Origin: Acidimicrobiia bacterium
Lineage (GTDB): Bacteria > Actinomycetota > Acidimicrobiia > IMCC26256 > JACDBD01
Assembly (NCBI GenBank): GCA_036005605.1
Contig: DASYQJ010000251.1
Span: forward strand, 1,105 to 65,104
Reading direction: 5' to 3'
Length of the DNA: 64,000 nt
Shown: piece after piece, positions 15,843 to 55,651 of the stretch
Numbering within the stretch: position 1 is the first letter of the stretch
Layout of the letters: each line of letters begins with the position of its first letter
Made by a program: the position numbers and the translations under genes
The notes under the pieces: generated by a model
What the model saw: only the letters and a program-made list of their open reading frames with translations
Told to the model about the DNA's origin: nothing
Databases searched by the model: none

Positions 15843-16844
15843 ATGACCGGGATCGTCAGTGACGCCAGTGCGCCGCCGGACGAGTTGCTCGACCGCCTCC
15901 TCGTCGAGCATGACTCGTGGCTGGCGGTCGAGCGCGGGCTCGCCGCCAACTCGCTGGCTGCGTATCGCCGCGACCTGCGCCGCTACGCCGGCTTCCTCCG
16001 TGAGCGCGGCGAGCACGACCCGACTGCGGTCCGGGAGGAGACGGTCCTCGCCTACGTCGAGGACTTGAAGTCGGCAGTCGATGACGACGGAAATCCGCGG
16101 TACGCGCCCTCCTCGATCGCGCGGGCGTTGGTCGCGGTCCGGTCCTTCCATCGTTTCTGCCTCGAGGAGGGGTTCCTCGCCGTCGACCCGAGCGAGGAAG
16201 TCGGCGCGCCGCGGGTGCCGTTGGGCATCCCCAAGGCGCTCACCGAGGACGAGGTCGAGGCGCTCCTTGGTGCGGTGGTCGGTGACACGGCGCGGGCGCT
16301 GCGTGATCGCGCCATCGTCGAGACCCTGTACGCGACCGGGGTGCGCATCAGCGAGCTCGTTGGCCTCGACCGGCGCGACCTCGACCTCGACGACGGCCTC
16401 GTGCGCGTCCTGGGCAAGGGCGGCAAGGAGCGCATCGTCCCCGTCGGGCGCTCGGCTCGCGATGCGCTGACCGCCTACCTCGCCGCCGGGCGCCCCCAGC
16501 TCGCCCGTCCCGACCGCTCGGCCCGCGGCGGCGGCGAAGCGGTGATCCTTAATGTACGGGGTGGCCGGTTGAGCCGGCAGAGCTGCTGGAAGATCGTTCG
16601 CGCGGCGGGGGAGCGGGCGGGCTTGAGTGGGCGCCTGTCGCCGCACGTGCTGCGGCACTCGTGCGCGACCCACATGCTGGAGCGGGGCGCCGACATCCGG
16701 GTGGTGCAGGAGCTCCTCGGTCACGCCAGCCTCTCCACCACCCAGGTGTACACAAAGGTGTCACCCGAGCGGCTGCGAGCCGTCTACGAGGCGGCCCATC
16801 CCCGGGCCCGATTCCCCGAGAGCGCCGGCCGGGCCGAGCAGTAG
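15843..16844 (+). CDS. xerD: Site-specific tyrosine recombinase XerD
   Basis: N-terminal SAM-like domain (LAANSLAAYRRDLRRYAGFL). Catalytic region VLRHSCATHMLERGADIRVVQELLGHASLSTTQVYTKV. Confidence 0.92.
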   Translation: MTGIVSDASAPPDELLDRLLVEHDSWLAVERGLAANSLAAYRRDLRRYAGFLRERGEHDPTAVREETVLAYVEDLKSAVDDDGNPRYAPSSIARALVAVRSFHRFCLEEGFLAVDPSEEVGAPRVPLGIPKALTEDEVEALLGAVVGDTARALRDRAIVETLYATGVRISELVGLDRRDLDLDDGLVRVLGKGGKERIVPVGRSARDALTAYLAAGRPQLARPDRSARGGGEAVILNVRGGRLSRQSCWKIVRAAGERAGLSGRLSPHVLRHSCATHMLERGADIRVVQELLGHASLSTTQVYTKVSPERLRAVYEAAHPRARFPESAGRAEQ

Positions 16845-48354: not shown

Positions 48355-51231
<2,877 letters not shown>

Positions 51232-51234
51232 GCG

Positions 51235-51636
51235 TCAGGCGACCGCGGTCGCCTCGAGTTCGACCATCAACTCCGGGAACGCGAGCCGCGCCACGCCGAG
51301 GAGCGTGCCCGGCGGCGCCACCCCCGCGGCACCCGTCCGCTCACTGAGCGCGCCGCCCCCGATGCCGATGAAAGCGTCGACGTCGGTCGTGTAGATGTTC
51401 AGGCGTACGACGTTCGCCAAGCCCATCCCTGCGCCGCGCAACACCGCCTCGAGGTTGTCCACGGCGAGCGAGATCTGCCCCGCCATGTCCCCGGCAAACT
51501 GCGGGGAGCCCTCACCGTCCACGGAGGTCTGGCCGGCACAGAACAAGACACGCTGCCCACCTTCGACGATCTCGCCCTGGTTGAACCCGAACTCCAGCGA
51601 CCACTGCCACGGGTTGACTGCTGTGCGTTGGACCAT
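51235..51636 (-). CDS. RidA/YjgF family protein
   Basis: 133 aa from ATG 51636 (MVQRTAVNPW...). YjgF-like pattern (...NVVRLNIYTTD...). The longer tracked ORF is rejected. Confidence 0.7.
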   Translation of the reverse strand: MVQRTAVNPWQWSLEFGFNQGEIVEGGQRVLFCAGQTSVDGEGSPQFAGDMAGQISLAVDNLEAVLRGAGMGLANVVRLNIYTTDVDAFIGIGGGALSERTGAAGVAPPGTLLGVARLAFPELMVELEATAVA

Positions 51637-51708
51637 GCTGCTTCCCTCACTCTCACCGATCACGGGACCACTCGTAGCGTAGGGTCGACCGCCGTGGCAC
51701 ACCCGCGG

Positions 51709-52077
51709 ATGTACAGCGACGACGATCCGTACCTCACCGAGCTCCGTGACGTCTGCCTCGCGTTCCCCGAGTCGTGCGAGGTCGAGGCGTGGGGGAGGCC
51801 GACCTTCCGTGCCGGCAAGAAGATGTTCGCCGTCTTCTCGGGGACCGAGGATCGGCCCTGGGGCGTCATCTTCAAGCCCGAGCCCGACGAGCGACCCGCG
51901 CTCCTCGAGGACCCGCGCTTCTATGTGCCCGCGTACTTCGGTCCCAGCGGATGGCTCGCGCTCGACCTCGGGGCCTGCAAGCGCGTCGACTGGGGCGAGG
52001 TCACCGAGCTCATCGATAGCTCGTACCGCCAGGTCGCCCTCAGGCGCATGCTCAAGGCCCTGGAGGAGCGAGGGTGA
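51709..52077 (+). CDS. MmcQ/YjbR family DNA-binding protein
   Basis: 122 aa from ATG 51709. LRDVCLAFPE...WGRPTFRAGKKMFA pattern. Confidence 0.7.
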   Translation: MYSDDDPYLTELRDVCLAFPESCEVEAWGRPTFRAGKKMFAVFSGTEDRPWGVIFKPEPDERPALLEDPRFYVPAYFGPSGWLALDLGACKRVDWGEVTELIDSSYRQVALRRMLKALEERG

Positions 52078-52114
52078 ACCCACGCCGGGATGCCGCTTGG
52101 GTGAATCGTGGGCT

Positions 52115-52142
52115 AGTTAACATAACCGGGATTATGGGCGGC
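52115..52142 (-). other. dif: Candidate dif site (XerC/XerD chromosome dimer resolution site)
   Basis: The minus strand reads GCCGCCCATAA-TCCCGG-TTATGTTAACT. Against E. coli dif GGTGCGCATAA-TGTATA-TTATGTTAAAT, the XerD arm matches 10/11 and the XerC arm 8/11. Lies in a convergent intergenic gap at the point where gene orientation switches. Confidence 0.7.
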
Positions 52143-52193
52143 GTGGGGTAGCGGTCGCCTGGCGGCGGCGTGAGCCACTTCGCCCATAATCCT
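52128..52193. repeat. Inverted repeat formed by the dif XerC arm and a second, isolated XerC-arm-like half-site
   Basis: ATTATGGGCG (52131-40) and CGCCCATAAT (52181-90) are perfect 10-bp inverted repeats, extendable to 12-13 bp. 52179-89 TTCGCCCATAA has no adjoining XerD arm. Confidence 0.6.
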
Positions 52194-52199
52194 CTGGGG

Positions 52200-53009
52200 T
52201 CATGCACCCCTGGCGTGCTGTGGGCCTTGCTCGACGGCCCTCTGGGCCGTCTCGAGGGACGTGTCGGGTTGGAAGGCCTCGAGCCACCAGGTGGCGCCGG
52301 CAGACTCGTATTCGTGCGGAGGCGCGCTCGCCGTCCACGAGACGACGGCTACGTCGAATGGAGCATCGGCTGTCCGGTGCCGGTCGATCTCGCTGAGAAG
52401 CTCTGTGATCGCCTTGGGTGGGAGGTCGCCGATGGGGACGACGCCGTCGTACCGGGCGGCTCGGCGGAGGGGGGCTCGGACTGGCGAGTGGGCGCCGCAC
52501 CAGATGGGGATGCGCGGTTGTTGGAGTGGACGGGGGAGGAAGCGCACGCCGTCGACGTGAAAATGGGGGCCGGAGTGGTGGACCGACTCCCCCGTCCAGA
52601 GCTGCGTGAGGATCTCCAGTCCCTCGTCGAGGAGCTCGGCGCGCGTGCGGTCGTCGCTCGGCTCGCCGAAGGCGCTGAACTCCCGGGAGTGGTCGGTACC
52701 GATGCCGGCGCCGAGGACGAGGCGGCCGCGCGACAGGTGGTCGAGGCTGACGGCCTCGCGCGCGAGCTTCCATGGGCGGCGGCGTGGGATCGGCGTGATG
52801 AGGGGGCCGATGCGGAGGCGGTCGGTGCGCGCCGCGATCGCGGCCAGGGCGATCCAGGCGTCGACGTAGGGGCCGTCGATGCGGTGCATGACGTGGTCCC
52901 AGAGGAAGAAGCCGTCCCAGCCACTCCCCTCGGCTGCGACCGCCAGGTCGACCAGGGCCGCCGGGTCCCCGAACGGGCCGAACGGCGGCAGGAAGATCCC
53001 CCGCTTCAC
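52200..53009 (-). CDS. LLM-class flavin/F420-dependent oxidoreductase
   Basis: 269 aa from GTG 53009 (VKRGIFLPPFG...). Luciferase-like TIM-barrel pattern (GWDGFFLWDH, RLVLGAGIG). Confidence 0.75.
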   Translation of the reverse strand: MKRGIFLPPFGPFGDPAALVDLAVAAEGSGWDGFFLWDHVMHRIDGPYVDAWIALAAIAARTDRLRIGPLITPIPRRRPWKLAREAVSLDHLSRGRLVLGAGIGTDHSREFSAFGEPSDDRTRAELLDEGLEILTQLWTGESVHHSGPHFHVDGVRFLPRPLQQPRIPIWCGAHSPVRAPLRRAARYDGVVPIGDLPPKAITELLSEIDRHRTADAPFDVAVVSWTASAPPHEYESAGATWWLEAFQPDTSLETAQRAVEQGPQHARGA

Positions 53010-53482
53010 TCGCGCCGGTCGAGCGCGCGATGCATCACGAGCGCGCGCGCCGTGAACCCGGACCCCTCGAAGAAGTTCTTCGTCGTCCGATGGCCCGGCA
53101 GCGCGAGGGCATCGATGCCGGTGCAACCGCGCGTCGCGCAGAACGCCACCAGATCGTCCGCCATCGCCTCCCCCACCCCGACGGCGCGAGCACCGGGCTC
53201 CACGAAGATGTCGCTGATGACGCCGAGCGTCTCGCCCGTCCGGAGGCGCTCGAGTGCGACCACACCGAAGCCCACGATCATCTCGTCCACCGTCCCGACG
53301 ACCACCAACGCGTCGTCCCGGTCGATGAGCGCGCCGTAGGCATCCTCGAACGGCTCGGCGATCGCCTCGCGTGCAGACCACAGCGCGCCGCCCTTCATGG
53401 GCACGAGCTCCTCGCGTGCAAGCTCGGCCAGCTCGGCGATGCGCGGCAGGTCCTCGGCGATGGCGGGACGACTGCCCTCCAT
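53006..53482 (-). CDS. GNAT family N-acetyltransferase
   Basis: 158 aa from ATG 53482. Acetyl-CoA-binding-type segment IFVEPGARAVGVGEAM. Stop overlaps the start of the LLM gene (GTGA). Confidence 0.75.
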   Translation of the reverse strand: MEGSRPAIAEDLPRIAELAELAREELVPMKGGALWSAREAIAEPFEDAYGALIDRDDALVVVGTVDEMIVGFGVVALERLRTGETLGVISDIFVEPGARAVGVGEAMADDLVAFCATRGCTGIDALALPGHRTTKNFFEGSGFTARALVMHRALDRRE

Positions 53483-53492
53483 GGATGGGCGC

Positions 53493-54089
53493 TCAGCCGG
53501 TGAGTTGTTCGATCTTGTACAAGATCGTGCGCCGCGACCGGTGTGCTTCCTCGTACGCGCGCACGGCATCGAGCTCGCCCGCCTGCAGGCCGTCGAGGCG
53601 CTCCACGACCTGCGAGGCCGACAACTCGTCGTAGTCGGGGATCCCGAGCGTCGCCGCCTTCGGCGCTGCGCTCGCGCTGGTCGACTCCCCCGCCGGCTCG
53701 CTCGCCGCGCTCGGGCTCGGTGCCGCCGCGGGTTCCGCTGGCGCGTGCCTCGCCGGCGGCGGGGCATCGTCGGCCGCGTCGGGGAACTCGCTCTCGTCGT
53801 CGCCACCGCCGAGCACGGCCTCCGCGCTCTTGCGGGCCATGGCGATCCCCTTCTCCACGTGCTCGAGGACCTTGGGCCCGCCGAAGTTCACCGCGAACTC
53901 CCCCATCGCCTTCGCCTGCGCGACCTGACCTTGCGCCTGTTGACGGCGTTGCCCGAGCTCGGCCCGGCCCCGCGACACGAACAGGTTGACGAACGTGGGA
54001 ACGGTGTCGCGCAGGTACAACGCGACACCGACGGGCGCGTACACGAGCAGGTCGATCGCCCGTTCGGCCGTCTTCTGGTCGTCGCTCAC
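53493..54089 (-). CDS. Conserved actinobacterial hypothetical protein
   Basis: 198 aa. N-terminal amphipathic region, Ala/Pro-rich linker, C-terminal IPDYDELSASQVVERLDGL...RTILYKI helical motif. GTG start overlaps the lnt stop. Confidence 0.7.
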   Translation of the reverse strand: MSDDQKTAERAIDLLVYAPVGVALYLRDTVPTFVNLFVSRGRAELGQRRQQAQGQVAQAKAMGEFAVNFGGPKVLEHVEKGIAMARKSAEAVLGGGDDESEFPDAADDAPPPARHAPAEPAAAPSPSAASEPAGESTSASAAPKAATLGIPDYDELSASQVVERLDGLQAGELDAVRAYEEAHRSRRTILYKIEQLTG

Positions 54090-55651
54090 GTCACCCTCCC
54101 GCTCCCGACTGGCTCGCGCGGTTCCGCGGCGAGTTTAGGGAACGTCGCCGGGGGCCGGCGCACGCGGCTCGCGACCGCGGCCCCGAGGAGCAGCAGCGCG
54201 CTGACGGCCACCACCCACTCCCCGAAGCGCACGTACGGCGTCTCGCCGGTGGTCGTCGTGACCGTGTCGGTGACGACGGCGCGTTGGAACAGCTCCGTCG
54301 TGTTGCGCACGTCGCCGTCGGCGTCGATGACCGCGCTCTTCCCCGAGATCGATGCCTGGACGAACGGGCGCCCCGTCTCCGCCGCCCGCATCTGCGTCTG
54401 GGCGACGTGCTGGGCCGAGTTGCCCGAGCGTCGGTACGAGCGGTTGTTCGTGCTCACGACGACGACCTCGGCGCCGCGGTGGACGAAGTCCCGGACGAGC
54501 GGCCCGAACGCCGACTCGAAGCAGATCACCGTGGCCAGCCGGTGGCCCTTGACCCGGAAGATCGTCCGCTCCTTCCCCGGCGTGTAGTCGTACGGGATCC
54601 GGTCGACGATCCCGGTCCAATCGACGAGCGAGCGGAACGGCACGTACTCGCCGAACGGGACGAGATGCTCCTTGGAGTACGTTCCCGTGAGACGCCCGTC
54701 CGGGGTGTAGAGCAGGTTCTGGTTGAACTCGCGTCCGTCGGGTGCCGGGACGGCCGCGTTGGCGAGCACGTCCGCACCGTGCGCGGCCCCCACCGCGACC
54801 AGGCGGTTGCGGAGGCTCGGGTTGCTCTCGGGGCTGAAGTCGTCGAGCGACGATTCGGGGAACACCACGAGGTCGTACTGGCCCCGCAGCTGGTTCGCGA
54901 GCGCGAAGTGCTGCTCGGTGAGGTAGCCGCTGCGCTTCTCTTCGGTGGTCAGGTAGCGGTCCTGGTCGTTGCCCTGGAGCGTGGCGACCCGCAGCTCTCC
55001 CGAGGGATGGGTCTGGTAGCGCGCCACGTCGGCAACGGCGACGAGCGCGGCGACCACGCCGACGCCCGCGGTCGCGACGAGGATCGATCGCCGCCCGTGC
55101 GCGCGGAGCGCGACGGCAAGCTCGACGAGATAGGCGTTGAACACGACGAGTACGAACGAGACGAGCGCGACGCCGCCCCAGCTCGCGACCGCGCGCGCGG
55201 GCGGGAAGTCGTGGAGCGCCACGCCGAGATCACCCCACGGCAGCCCGCCGAAGGGCCAGCGGCCGCGCAGTGCCTCGGGCACCACCCATGCCGCCGCGAT
55301 GAGCCACGGTGATCGAAGACCGGCGCGGTTGAGGCAGCCGACGAGGTACCCGGTGAGGGCCGTGTACGCCGCCCATGCGGCGACGAGCGGCACGATCGCG
55401 ATGATCCCGAAGTACCAGAGCCAGTACAGGAGGATCCCGGCGAACACGATGCCGAAGACGAACCCGTACAGCGCAGCGTGACCAGGCGTCTCTCCCCGCC
55501 ACGCCCAGAGCAGCGGGACCAGCGCCACCAGCGCCAGCACACCGATGTCGAACGCAGGGAACGCCAGCGCCAGGAGGAGACCCGAGAGCGCCGCCGCCCC
55601 CATGCGGCGTTGTACCCCGCGATCGCGCAGGACCCTGCCGATGCGACTCAT
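54086..55651 (-). CDS. lnt: Apolipoprotein N-acyltransferase
   Basis: 521 aa. N-terminal polytopic domain plus a CN-hydrolase domain (VVFPES, LVPFGEYVP, VICFES). Confidence 0.9.
   Translation of the reverse strand: MSRIGRVLRDRGVQRRMGAAALSGLLLALAFPAFDIGVLALVALVPLLWAWRGETPGHAALYGFVFGIVFAGILLYWLWYFGIIAIVPLVAAWAAYTALTGYLVGCLNRAGLRSPWLIAAAWVVPEALRGRWPFGGLPWGDLGVALHDFPPARAVASWGGVALVSFVLVVFNAYLVELAVALRAHGRRSILVATAGVGVVAALVAVADVARYQTHPSGELRVATLQGNDQDRYLTTEEKRSGYLTEQHFALANQLRGQYDLVVFPESSLDDFSPESNPSLRNRLVAVGAAHGADVLANAAVPAPDGREFNQNLLYTPDGRLTGTYSKEHLVPFGEYVPFRSLVDWTGIVDRIPYDYTPGKERTIFRVKGHRLATVICFESAFGPLVRDFVHRGAEVVVVSTNNRSYRRSGNSAQHVAQTQMRAAETGRPFVQASISGKSAVIDADGDVRNTTELFQRAVVTDTVTTTTGETPYVRFGEWVVAVSALLLLGAAVASRVRRPPATFPKLAAEPREPVGSGRVT

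Follow-up and report, generated by a model that had tools for sequence, protein, structure and literature searches.

Predicted dif sites of Actinobacteria share a consensus of about nnnGCCGATAA-TGTACA-TTATGTCAAGT (Kono et al. 2011, PMC3025954), and the arms published for Micrococcus (TTATGTCAACT) and Nocardia (TTATGTTAAGT) are similar to those of the site described here (PMC3025954). In B. subtilis, orphan XerD-binding half-sites in the terminus (XDS) unload SMC, as far as PMC11894783 recounts the work of Karaboja et al. (2021). Our search of the open-access literature returned no account of an inverted XerC arm adjacent to dif, or of a terminator embedded in dif.

We analysed a 64-kb stretch of DNA, hereafter the window, in which a candidate dif site is followed on its XerC side by an inverted second XerC-type arm. 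The best overall reading, which we consider reasonably probable, combines a dif with a terminator-type hairpin for the gene that converges on the XerC side.

Identification and Conservation of a Candidate dif Site

The first-pass annotation had proposed a 28-bp dif site, read on the minus strand from 52142 to 52115. Its sequence and coordinates were reconfirmed, and the recomputed identities to the E. coli dif were again 8/11 for the XerC arm and 10/11 for the XerD arm. The site, its neighbors and the recombinase gene are as follows.

52115–52142, minus strand: candidate dif, 28 bp, reading GCCGCCCATAA-TCCCGG-TTATGTTAACT, with the XerC arm at 52142–52132, the central region at 52131–52126 and the XerD arm at 52125–52115
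52103–52114, plus strand: flank motif GAATCGTGGGCT, abutting the XerD arm; moderately conserved, with the clade consensus GGATCGTGGGCT
51628–52077, plus strand: YjbR-family gene, with 37 nt separating its end from the XerD arm; start uncertain
52200–53009, minus strand: F420-type luciferase-like (LLM) oxidoreductase gene, with its stop at 52200–52202, converging on the XerC side and lying 7 nt from the stem described below; start approximate, set from homologues of 265–269 aa
15843–16844, plus strand: xerD, with Pfam domains PF02899 and PF00589; TIGR02225 score 333.7 against a cut-off of 329.6, and the XerC model under its cut-off

The 28-mer has the architecture of a dif, with two 11-bp arms that form an imperfect inverted repeat around a 6-bp central region and an inner palindrome of the CATAA/TTATG type. 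The flank motif is similar to GGATTATGGGC, the complement of the XerC arm. In the 64-kb window, CATAA-N6-TTATG occurred a single time, as did the 11-nt XerD arm with up to two mismatches allowed. A dif weight matrix was trained on 29 published actinobacterial dif predictions, with 20 shuffles as the control. The 28-mer scored 18.4 bits, compared with -1.0 for the runner-up in the window and a maximum of 4.5 over the 20 shuffles, so the scan for better matches that had been suggested earlier returned none within the window. The training sites themselves scored 35.8–55 bits, and the 28-mer fell far below them because of its G+C-rich central region and the CATAA in place of GATAA. The locus had also been called the most AT-rich stretch; this held at the 40-nt scale, as a tie with a stretch at 62.5 kb, and failed at the 28-nt scale, where the locus was outranked.

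The nearest relatives were MAGs labelled Actinomycetota or Acidimicrobiia, and the closest genome in the species collection, with 93% GcvP identity, was found on a 12-kb contig. An orthologous site was present downstream of gcvP in relatives with 69–93% GcvP identity. Its distance from gcvP was 0.5–0.9 kb in L002, L006, and L007 and 1.5 kb in L003, and the central regions of these sites differed. Across the relatives the dif arms were conserved and the central region was variable, with TCCCGG, TCCTGG, TCCTCG, and TCTTCG among its forms. When five loci were selected by the LLM protein alone, the site was present in 5/5 and the XerC-arm core TTATGGGCG was kept in 5/5. The dif-like site was single in the window and in every related contig.

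The gene at 15843–16844 scored above the XerD cut-off and below the XerC cut-off, in agreement with its first assignment as xerD; no XerC gene was seen within the 64-kb window. A protein identical to this XerD is on record solely on a 1.7-kb contig. Chromosome dimers would be resolved by XerC and XerD bound to the two 11-bp arms, with strand exchange over the 6-bp central region. The 28-mer at 52115–52142 is very probably the chromosomal dif of an uncultured soil Actinomycetota bacterium.

Gene Convergence and Skew Around the Site

The 122-bp gap reported between convergent genes was found at 52078–52199, between the YjbR-family gene on the plus strand and the LLM gene on the minus strand. The reported flip in gene orientation was also recovered, with 146 plus and 26 minus coding-strand calls to the left of the site and 4 plus and 32 minus calls to the right. 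In relatives, the convergence counts were 249:25 and 179:23 in the clade of the window and 41:0 and 37:1 in L007, and the annotated genes of L322 and L326 likewise converge on the site. The site is the meeting point of the co-oriented blocks gcvH-garA-gcvT-gcvP and tatA-tatC-helY-lnt-LLM, which would belong to the two replichores.

At a textbook terminus the cumulative G-C curve reaches its maximum. An extremum had been predicted at about 52.1 kb and was located at 52,000, but it was a minimum, of the opposite sign, and the skew was weak: -0.011 ± 0.007 on one side and +0.008 ± 0.016 on the other, both within about two standard errors of zero for the 64-kb window. The strand counts of GGGNAGGG, a word of the FtsK-orienting type, were 8:3 to the left and 1:0 to the right. 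The most polar word, GGGGGAG (21:0 left and 6:1 right), flips at the site, where it is confounded with gene orientation; it resembles a Shine-Dalgarno sequence, and the opposite-strand coding control amounted to 5 kb. The proposal of a dif is well supported by the unique match, the orthologous conservation, and the gene convergence. A terminus at the site is consistent with these data from 64 kb but unproven.

A Second XerC-Type Arm Within a Conserved Stem-Loop

An inverted TTCGCCCATAA had been noted at 52179–52189 on the plus strand and was found there. The 12–13 bp hairpin proposed between the two arms was recovered as a perfect 12-bp inverted repeat, GGATTATGGGCG at 52129–52140 and CGCCCATAATCC at 52181–52192, which extends to 18 nt at 89% complementarity. 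The arm is part of a larger structure with the following elements.

52179–52192, plus strand: inverted second XerC-type arm plus 3 nt copying the XerC-proximal central region (TTCGCCCATAATCC); 3' half of the plus-strand outer stem
52129–52192, no strand assigned: two-tier stem-loop of about 64 nt, with an outer stem, a GTGG/CCAC helix in the middle, and a G+C-rich hairpin inside
52151–52171, no strand assigned: inner hairpin GGTCGCC-TGGC-GGCGGC, with compensatory changes at 3/8 inner pairs

In the outer stem, the XerC arm and three adjoining nucleotides of the central region pair with the second arm. The second arm was conserved in about 25 related sequences, in which the repeat reached 3–6 nt into the dif central region and tracked the changes there; one central-region position covaried with the second arm as A-U in 13 sequences and G-C in 7. 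The inner stem occurred in relatives in at least four versions, all Watson-Crick-compatible (GCCGCC/GGCGGC, GCGGCC/GGCCGC, GGCGCC/GGCGCC, and GGCCGC/GCGGCC). The stem-loop folded at -49 and -54 kcal/mol (z -4.4 and -2.2). Paired cells made up 90.8%, compared with 40–49% when the structure was slid along the alignment, and the covariation score of 0.124 (0.075 ± 0.010 in the control) was matched by 0/500 shuffles.

Inverted repeats of at least 10 bp were then surveyed at 100 distinct dif sites with wrong-side controls. Such repeats were present on the XerC side in 19/100 sites and on the XerD side in 1/100, compared with 0 to 2/100 in the wrong-side controls, and the repeat was absent from most other dif-bearing lineages. 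The same design, built with their own central-region bases, was found in L007, as a 33-bp near-palindrome, and in L193, with the extension TGTC. We also considered pairing between the XerC arm and its flank as a general property of dif sites and rejected it: outside the clade the duplex energies equalled those of the wrong-side controls, and L007 and L193 alone stood out.

The second arm might be a functional extra XerC half-site at the DNA level, which could hold a spare XerC, influence which strand exchange comes first, block the passage of SMC or FtsK, or take part in a three-armed pseudo-Holliday cruciform. We regard this as unlikely, and just as unlikely the variant in which the arm is the XerC-type counterpart of B. 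subtilis XerD/XDS, tuning Xer recombination or halting SMC or FtsK at the terminus, and the RNA role of the hairpin is secondary or absent. The arm matches the dif XerC arm perfectly over 9–11 nt both in the window and across most of the clade, and it recurs in three lineages, each time on the XerC side. Functional orphan Xer half-sites are known from B. subtilis, to the extent that XDS are recounted in PMC11894783. The 33-bp near-perfect palindrome of L007 could extrude as a cruciform; in the clade of the window extrusion is unlikely because the spacer is about 36 nt. Against a half-site, the spacing between the arms varied over nearly a full helical turn within the clade (31–39 bp) and was 18 bp in L193 and 5 bp in L007. 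The otherwise invariant ATAA core of the second arm was changed to ATCA or AGAA, or deleted, in 6/23 clade members and in 2/3 unbiased lineages, and the folds of these sequences still reached -30 to -44 kcal/mol. The core was altered in L326 and the arm was lost in L327, with the dif arm kept intact throughout, so conservation independent of pairing, as expected of an XDS-like element, was not observed. Moreover, the repeat takes in central-region bases and the unrelated inner stem covaries, neither of which a binding site needs. The variable spacing and the mutated ATAA core, together with the persistence of the hairpin, argue against a second XerC-binding site. On a balance tipping slightly past even, the second arm is no recombination half-site and belongs to the conserved stem-loop of about 64 nt, which is likely a terminator.

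A Possible Terminator Overlapping the Candidate dif

On the minus-strand transcript, the second arm would form the 5' half of the stem-loop, and the dif XerC arm with 3–6 nt of the central region would form its 3' half. The hairpin would begin 7–30 nt past the stop codon of the converging gene, and the XerD arm, read as UUAUGU(U/C)AA, would follow 0–3 nt after the hairpin as a U-rich tail. A dif whose XerC arm makes up one side of the stem and whose XerD arm makes up the tail would double as part of an intrinsic terminator or of a 3'-end protective hairpin.

A converging gene with its stop 7–30 nt from the stem was present both in the clade (the LLM gene) and in L007 (a GNAT gene). A stable G+C-rich stem-loop lies directly past a stop codon, with its pairing maintained in evolution, as would be expected of a terminator. 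The first 8 nt past the stem contained a mean of 4.4 U on the minus strand, compared with 2.3 U on the plus strand. Where the LLM gene was not adjacent (L105/L178, L144/L171, L186, and L327), the second arm was degenerate or lost. The exceptions were L145, with an intact second arm and no adjacent LLM gene, and L125, L103, and L326, with a damaged arm despite an adjacent LLM gene.

A tail of 3–5 U in 8 nt and an unusually long hairpin with internal loops speak against a terminator. The greater stability of the plus-strand fold in 20/23 sequences and its larger number of G.U pairs also weigh against it, and either strand may be the acting one. A canonical promoter and terminator scan of 50000–54500 gave no terminator and no promoter-like site; the terminator consensus calls for no fewer than 5 T among 8 nt, with 3–8 nt in the loop. 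The first-pass annotation had mentioned a bidirectional terminator. A terminator is close to our best reading, but the geometry favours the minus-strand gene over a symmetric, bidirectional arrangement.

Alternative Explanations

It had also been suggested that the second arm could be a relic of a Xer-dependent integration. Against this idea stands an arm that is inverted, 36 bp away, without a XerD arm, and under selection in a covarying hairpin. In its broader form, which we consider rather improbable, the explanation takes the arm to be a functionless fossil of a Xer rearrangement: the XerC half-site, as far as the XerD cleavage point, might have been duplicated in inverted orientation, or an integrated IMEX might have decayed. 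The sequences do contain traces that such an event might leave: the L002 repeat stops precisely where the central region gives way to the XerD arm (CGCCCATAA+TCCCGG), the second copies of the GCAGGA subgroup retain an older TCCYGG-like central region, and in L003 the XerD flank and arm are duplicated in tandem over 66 bp, a precedent for a rearrangement with its junction inside the central region. However, IMEX integration gives direct repeats around an insert, not inverted repeats 5–39 bp apart, and the window holds no second dif-like site that could flank an insert in direct orientation. The stems were preserved while the loops and the sequence past the arm had diverged beyond alignment, and compensatory changes occurred in both stems. 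A rearrangement may therefore account for the origin of the arm, not for its maintenance.

That the 28-mer is not the chromosomal dif, being another conserved protein-binding palindrome or the attachment site of an element that resembles dif, is very improbable. Its matrix score well under those of known actinobacterial sites, its atypical central region, and the same XerC arm in dif-like sites of contigs labelled viral, such as L220, would fit this explanation; the arms, spacing, and polarity all fit a dif, neither the window nor any related contig has a second copy, and the sequence keeps the same position in deep relatives, at a conserved convergence point with no mobile-element genes nearby. 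Contig L220 was considered as a possible IMEX. Its XerC arm is the same and its central region similar, but its XerD arm is degenerate; its ORFs gave no Pfam matches, and for this reason it was set aside.

In the Rcd/cer system, Xer occupancy controls expression. Least probable of all is that the hairpin functions as a small structured RNA or as a 3' element of the plus strand, with a dif-overlapping promoter that uses TAACAT in the XerD arm as its -10 box under the control of Xer occupancy: the plus-strand fold was more stable in 20/23 sequences and had more G.U pairs (30 cells, compared with 7 on the minus strand), the TANNNT-type hexamer TAACAT lies 5–6 nt upstream of the stem base, and the hairpin is retained in L002 and L089 without a plus-strand gene reading into dif, but 19/30 of the G.U cells come from one terminal pair on a G/T-rich strand, there is no conserved -35 box or extended -10 element, the promoter scan was empty, and an Rfam search with the hairpin gave nothing above noise (best scores 12–15 bits, E at least 0.6).

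Significance and Comparison With Known Systems

The identification of a dif would anchor the terminus of an uncultured soil Actinomycetota lineage known from fragmented MAGs, and would aid scaffolding and replichore checks. It would also widen the actinobacterial dif profile to G+C-rich central regions, which predictors trained on TGTACA would score poorly. In the proposed arrangement, a recombination site also provides one side of a conserved stem-loop of RNA or DNA. If termination does occur inside dif, the Xer/FtsK reaction would be shielded from incoming RNA polymerase, and an essential DNA site would have been co-opted as a terminator in a genome poor in A/T-rich sequence. Should the second arm be bound by XerC instead, it would add a new accessory element to the Xer system.

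The folded single-stranded attP of CTX-phi has both its XerC and its XerD arm in the stem, and the element is a phage genome. The locus resembles this attP and IMEX sites in that dif-like sequences in inverted orientation are able to form a hairpin with a Xer arm inside it. Unlike in the CTX-phi attP, pairing in the window is confined to the XerC arm and some of the central region, with no insert and no phage genes. With B. subtilis XDS, as far as they are recounted in PMC11894783, it shares a lone Xer-type half-site, here in a presumed terminus region, whose partner arm is missing; unlike the XDS of that account, the arm is of the XerC type, next to dif, inverted, at variable spacing, and has a core that is dispensable in several lineages.

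Like actinobacterial dif sites, the 28-mer has an 11+6+11 bp layout, a GCC-ATAA XerC arm, an intergenic position at a convergence point, and a xerD gene encoded nearby, and its XerD arm TTATGTTAACT mixes the variants of Micrococcus and M. smegmatis (..CAACT) and of Nocardia and Saccharopolyspora (..TTAAGT). It differs from them in the CATAA of the E. coli form in place of GATAA, in a G+C-rich central region that ends in CG or GG in place of ..ACA, and in a XerC arm embedded in a conserved stem-loop. Like intrinsic terminators and the 3'-end hairpins of convergent genes, the locus has a covarying G+C-rich stem-loop past a stop codon, followed by a U-enriched stretch on the minus strand, and its outer A/U-rich pairs recall the A-tract/U-tract pairing of bidirectional terminators. 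It departs from intrinsic terminators in a stem of about 25 pairs with internal loops and in an imperfect tail, UUAUGUU, and the canonical scan misses it; moreover, a recombination site makes up both its tail and the 3' half of its stem.

Identification of the Candidate dif Site

The 28-mer was re-read from the window, where its XerC and XerD arms match those of E. coli dif at 8/11 and 10/11 positions, as the first-pass annotation had reported. The inverted XerC-type arm which that annotation had placed at 52179-52189 is also present on the plus strand, and the 122-bp gap between convergent genes that it described runs from 52078 to 52199. The window sequence (first two lines) and gene search (remaining lines) gave the following features.

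52142->52115, minus strand: candidate dif, GCCGCCCATAA-TCCCGG-TTATGTTAACT
52179-52189, plus strand: second arm, TTCGCCCATAA
Flank of the 52078-52199 gap, plus strand: YjbR-family gene
Other flank of this gap, minus strand: F420-type luciferase-like (LLM) oxidoreductase gene, stop codon 52200-52202
51235-51642, further left, minus strand: RidA-like (RidA/L-PSP) gene
48355-51231, further left, plus strand: gcvP

A 282-aa minus-strand ORF at 51235-52083 was rejected as a gene, since only 51235-51642 is the real RidA/L-PSP gene and the upstream part is a high-G+C artefact. This remainder is antisense to the YjbR gene and yields spurious tblastn matches in relatives.

Within the window, both CATAA-N6-TTATG and the XerD arm (with at most two mismatches) occur once, at the candidate. 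A dif weight matrix was trained on 29 published actinobacterial dif predictions (Kono et al. 2011, PMC3025954). The candidate scored 18.4 bits, compared to -1.0 for the runner-up in the window and a maximum of 4.5 over shuffled windows; it is not a chance match. The training sites score far higher (35.8-55 bits), because in the candidate CATAA replaces GATAA and the central region is G+C-rich. Moreover, the product of the xerD gene annotated at 15843-16844 passed the XerD equivalog cut-off and fell short of that for XerC. In database records, a 1.7-kb contig is the only one with the exact XerD protein. The 28-mer is very probably dif, and we regard any other identity as quite improbable.

Gene Orientation and Strand Polarity Around the Site

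The reported flip of gene orientation at the site was borne out: coding-strand calls numbered 146(+) and 26(-) to its left, compared to 4(+) and 32(-) to its right. Among the close relatives of the window (the clade), genes directed towards and away from the site numbered 249:25 on one side and 179:23 on the other. The respective counts in L007, a relative of a separate lineage, were 41:0 and 37:1, and the ratio in other high-GC lineages was about 2:1. In the annotated loci L322 and L326, tatA-tatC-helY-thyX-lnt-GNAT-LLM on one side are all directed at the site, as are gcvH-garA-MerR-gcvT-gcvP on the opposite side, where ridA is the sole exception. The Rv1826-1832-like and Rv2092c-2094c-like blocks are the ones that we take to bracket the M. 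tuberculosis terminus. The annotated genes of the relatives agree with this block-synteny argument. The position of M. bovis dif is given in the table of Kono et al. (PMC3025954).

The cumulative G-C extremum falls at 52,000, where it had been predicted, but it is a minimum and the skew is weak (-0.011 ± 0.007 at 20-52 kb and +0.008 ± 0.016 at 52-64 kb). Leading strands are usually G-rich, while the presumed leading strand here carries more C than G; this weak skew of opposite sign probably reflects coding-strand composition. AT skew, as well as GC skew, flips sign at the candidate (window 20000-64000). The most polar word was GGGGGAG, with 21 plus and 0 minus copies on the left and 6 minus and 1 plus on the right, flipping at the site. 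An FtsK-orienting role is possible, as is a simple ribosome-binding or codon effect: the word tracks gene orientation and looks like a ribosome-binding site, and the window has too little opposite-strand coding sequence for separating the two. The same flip was seen for GTGGGGG (9:0 and 6:0) and TGGGGGA (10:0 and 4:0).

dif-like Sites in Related Loci

When GcvP was searched against a collection with a single genome for each species, the organism proved to be an uncultured member of the Actinomycetota; its closest relative was a MAG at 93% GcvP identity, and Acidimicrobiia-labelled MAGs came next with about 70-75%. Four relatives carry a dif-like site downstream of gcvP, at 0.5-0.9 kb in L002, L006, and L007 and at 1.5 kb in L003; the arms are kept, while the central regions vary (TCCCGG, TCTTCG, TCCTCG, and ACCACG). 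In L011 a canonical CCGATAA-TCGACG-TTATGTCAAGT site lies upstream of gcvP. A metagenome scan for AGTTNACATAA-N6-TTATGGGC returned at least 120 loci, and among the matches listed about 25 are close relatives sharing the gene neighborhood of the window. In addition, five loci were selected through the LLM protein alone and are thus unbiased as to dif sequence. All five have a dif-like site, and the XerC-arm core TTATGGGCG was kept in 5/5.

A Predicted Stem-Loop Joining the XerC Arm and the Second Arm

The perfect inverted repeat in the window is 12 bp long, with GGATTATGGGCG at 52129-52140 and CGCCCATAATCC at 52181-52192, and it reaches 18 nt at 89% complementarity. The inverted XerC-type arm was found in the window and in L002, L089, L102, L109, L114, L116, L122, L128, L129, L145, L156, L165, L174, L182, L187, L195, L199, and L322-324, and in slightly damaged form in L103, L105, L125, L144, L178, L186, and L326. 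At 19/100 distinct sites, the XerC arm had an inverted repeat partner of 10 bp or more on the XerC side, compared to 1/100 for the XerD-side equivalent and 0 to 2 for wrong-side controls. The sole XerD-side case is the mirror image in L157 (oriented site ttatgtcaacgaAGTTGACATAATGAACCTTATGGGCGGT), where the XerD arm directly adjoins an inverted copy of itself (13-bp repeat, 2-nt spacer).

The spacer between the arms is not random sequence; it holds a G+C-rich inner hairpin with Watson-Crick-compatible versions (GCCGCC/GGCGGC, GCGGCC/GGCCGC, GGCGCC/GGCGCC, and GGCCGC/GCGGCC). In an alignment of 23 sequences, 90.8% of cells were paired, compared to 40-49% after the structure was shifted along by 1-3 columns. 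Covariation scored 0.124 against 0.075 ± 0.010, a value matched by 0/500 shuffles, and four pairs showed both-sided changes. In one of these four, a base of the dif central region pairs with the base immediately past the second arm (A-U in 13 sequences, G-C in 7). Furthermore, the repeat enters the central region by 3-6 nt in every case with the central bases of its own lineage. In clade members these bases range from TCC to TCCCGG, whereas L007 uses TCC and L193 uses TGTC. L007 and L193 are lineages apart, and the converging gene in L007 encodes a GNAT protein instead of LLM. By comparison of these sequences, the second arm makes up one half of a predicted conserved stem-loop.

GAATCGTGGGCT at window 52103-52114 (alignment A1 columns 19-30; clade consensus GGATCGTGGGCT) adjoins the XerD arm. 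It resembles GGATTATGGGC, the XerC-arm complement plus three central bases, in direct orientation, and could be an alternative pairing partner of the second arm.

Interpretation of the Stem-Loop

We prefer a terminator or 3'-hairpin to a second XerC site, and give this putative role an even chance or slightly better. In a minus-strand transcript, the hairpin would start 7-30 nt past the stop codon of the converging gene and stop 0-3 nt ahead of the XerD arm, which would be read as UUAUGU(U/C)AA. The first 8 nt past the stem contain on average 4.4 U on the minus strand and 2.3 on the plus strand, where about 1.2 are expected at 70% G+C. Such a geometry would explain why the repeat lies on the XerC side only, and why it extends into the central region, since the stem thereby meets the U-rich tail. 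It would also explain how the design could come about repeatedly in genomes that are otherwise nearly devoid of A/T-rich sequence. Damage to the second arm, or its loss, was seen in loci whose LLM gene does not converge directly on the site (L105/L178, L144/L171, L186, and L327); the exceptions are L145 and, in the opposite way, L103, L125, and L326. At L327:8034-8340, a small ORF of about 90 codons lies between dif and the LLM gene, convergent with the latter, and this locus has lost the second arm together with most of the inner hairpin.

Several observations speak against the terminator: a consensus terminator scan found none at the stem-loop, the minus-strand U-rich tail is imperfect, and fold energy and G.U pairing lean to the plus strand. 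The mean fold energy was -41.5 kcal/mol on the plus strand and -38.6 kcal/mol on the minus strand, a slight difference. G.U cells numbered 30 and 7, respectively, with one terminal pair contributing 19 of the 30 and the plus strand being G/T-rich. The bidirectional terminator suggested in the first-pass annotation comes close to the preferred reading, in which the U excess favors the minus strand; the plus strand, or both strands, may nevertheless be the acting ones.

It is unlikely that the second arm is a functional half-site bound by XerC, or that three Xer-type arms form a cruciform here. The closest parallel comes from B. subtilis, whose orphan XerD sites (XDS) unload SMC, as cited in PMC11894783. 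However, the arms lie 31-39 bp apart in clade members, with spacings of 18 bp in L193 and 5 bp in L007, which is inconsistent with phased protein-protein contact. Moreover, the ATAA core, invariant across all published actinobacterial dif sites (PMC3025954), is changed to ATCA or AGAA or bears a deletion in the second arm of 6/23 clade members. L326 likewise has ATCA, and L327 lacks the arm altogether. All these loci keep an intact dif arm, and the folds remain at -30 to -44 kcal/mol.

Still less probable is that the arm is left over from an inverted duplication mediated by Xer, or from an IMEX. The L002 repeat does terminate exactly where the central region meets the XerD arm, and L003:7455-7600 contains a 66-bp tandem duplication of the XerD-side flank and XerD arm (…ggtctAGTTAACATAA twice). 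One copy in L003 is an XerD half-site without an XerC arm because the junction is inside the central region, and the duplication looks like an illegitimate Xer-mediated event. Such events could account for the origin of the arm but not for its maintenance, and the direct-repeat architecture of IMEX is not present; the earlier suggestion of an integration relic finds no support. A small RNA from a dif-embedded promoter, as in Rcd/cer, is the least probable, since a conserved -35 box is absent and a promoter scan and Rfam search of the dif/stem-loop region gave no supporting match.

Comparison With Known Systems

A site at L220:2666-2693 (IMGVR_UViG_3300009156_000024), 213 nt from the end of a viral-labelled contig of 70% G+C, reads TCCTTACATAA-TCAGGA-TTATGGGCGGC. 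It has the XerC arm of the clade, a near-identical central region, and a degenerate XerD arm, the last being like the attachment sites of TLC-phi-type IMEX; the ORFs of this contig had no Pfam matches. No description of a conserved stem-loop in which the XerC arm forms one side and the XerD arm the tail was found in the open-access literature, and we infer its function from sequence alone. Predicting dif in a new lineage is routine; through its G+C-rich central region, the site modestly extends the actinobacterial dif profile.
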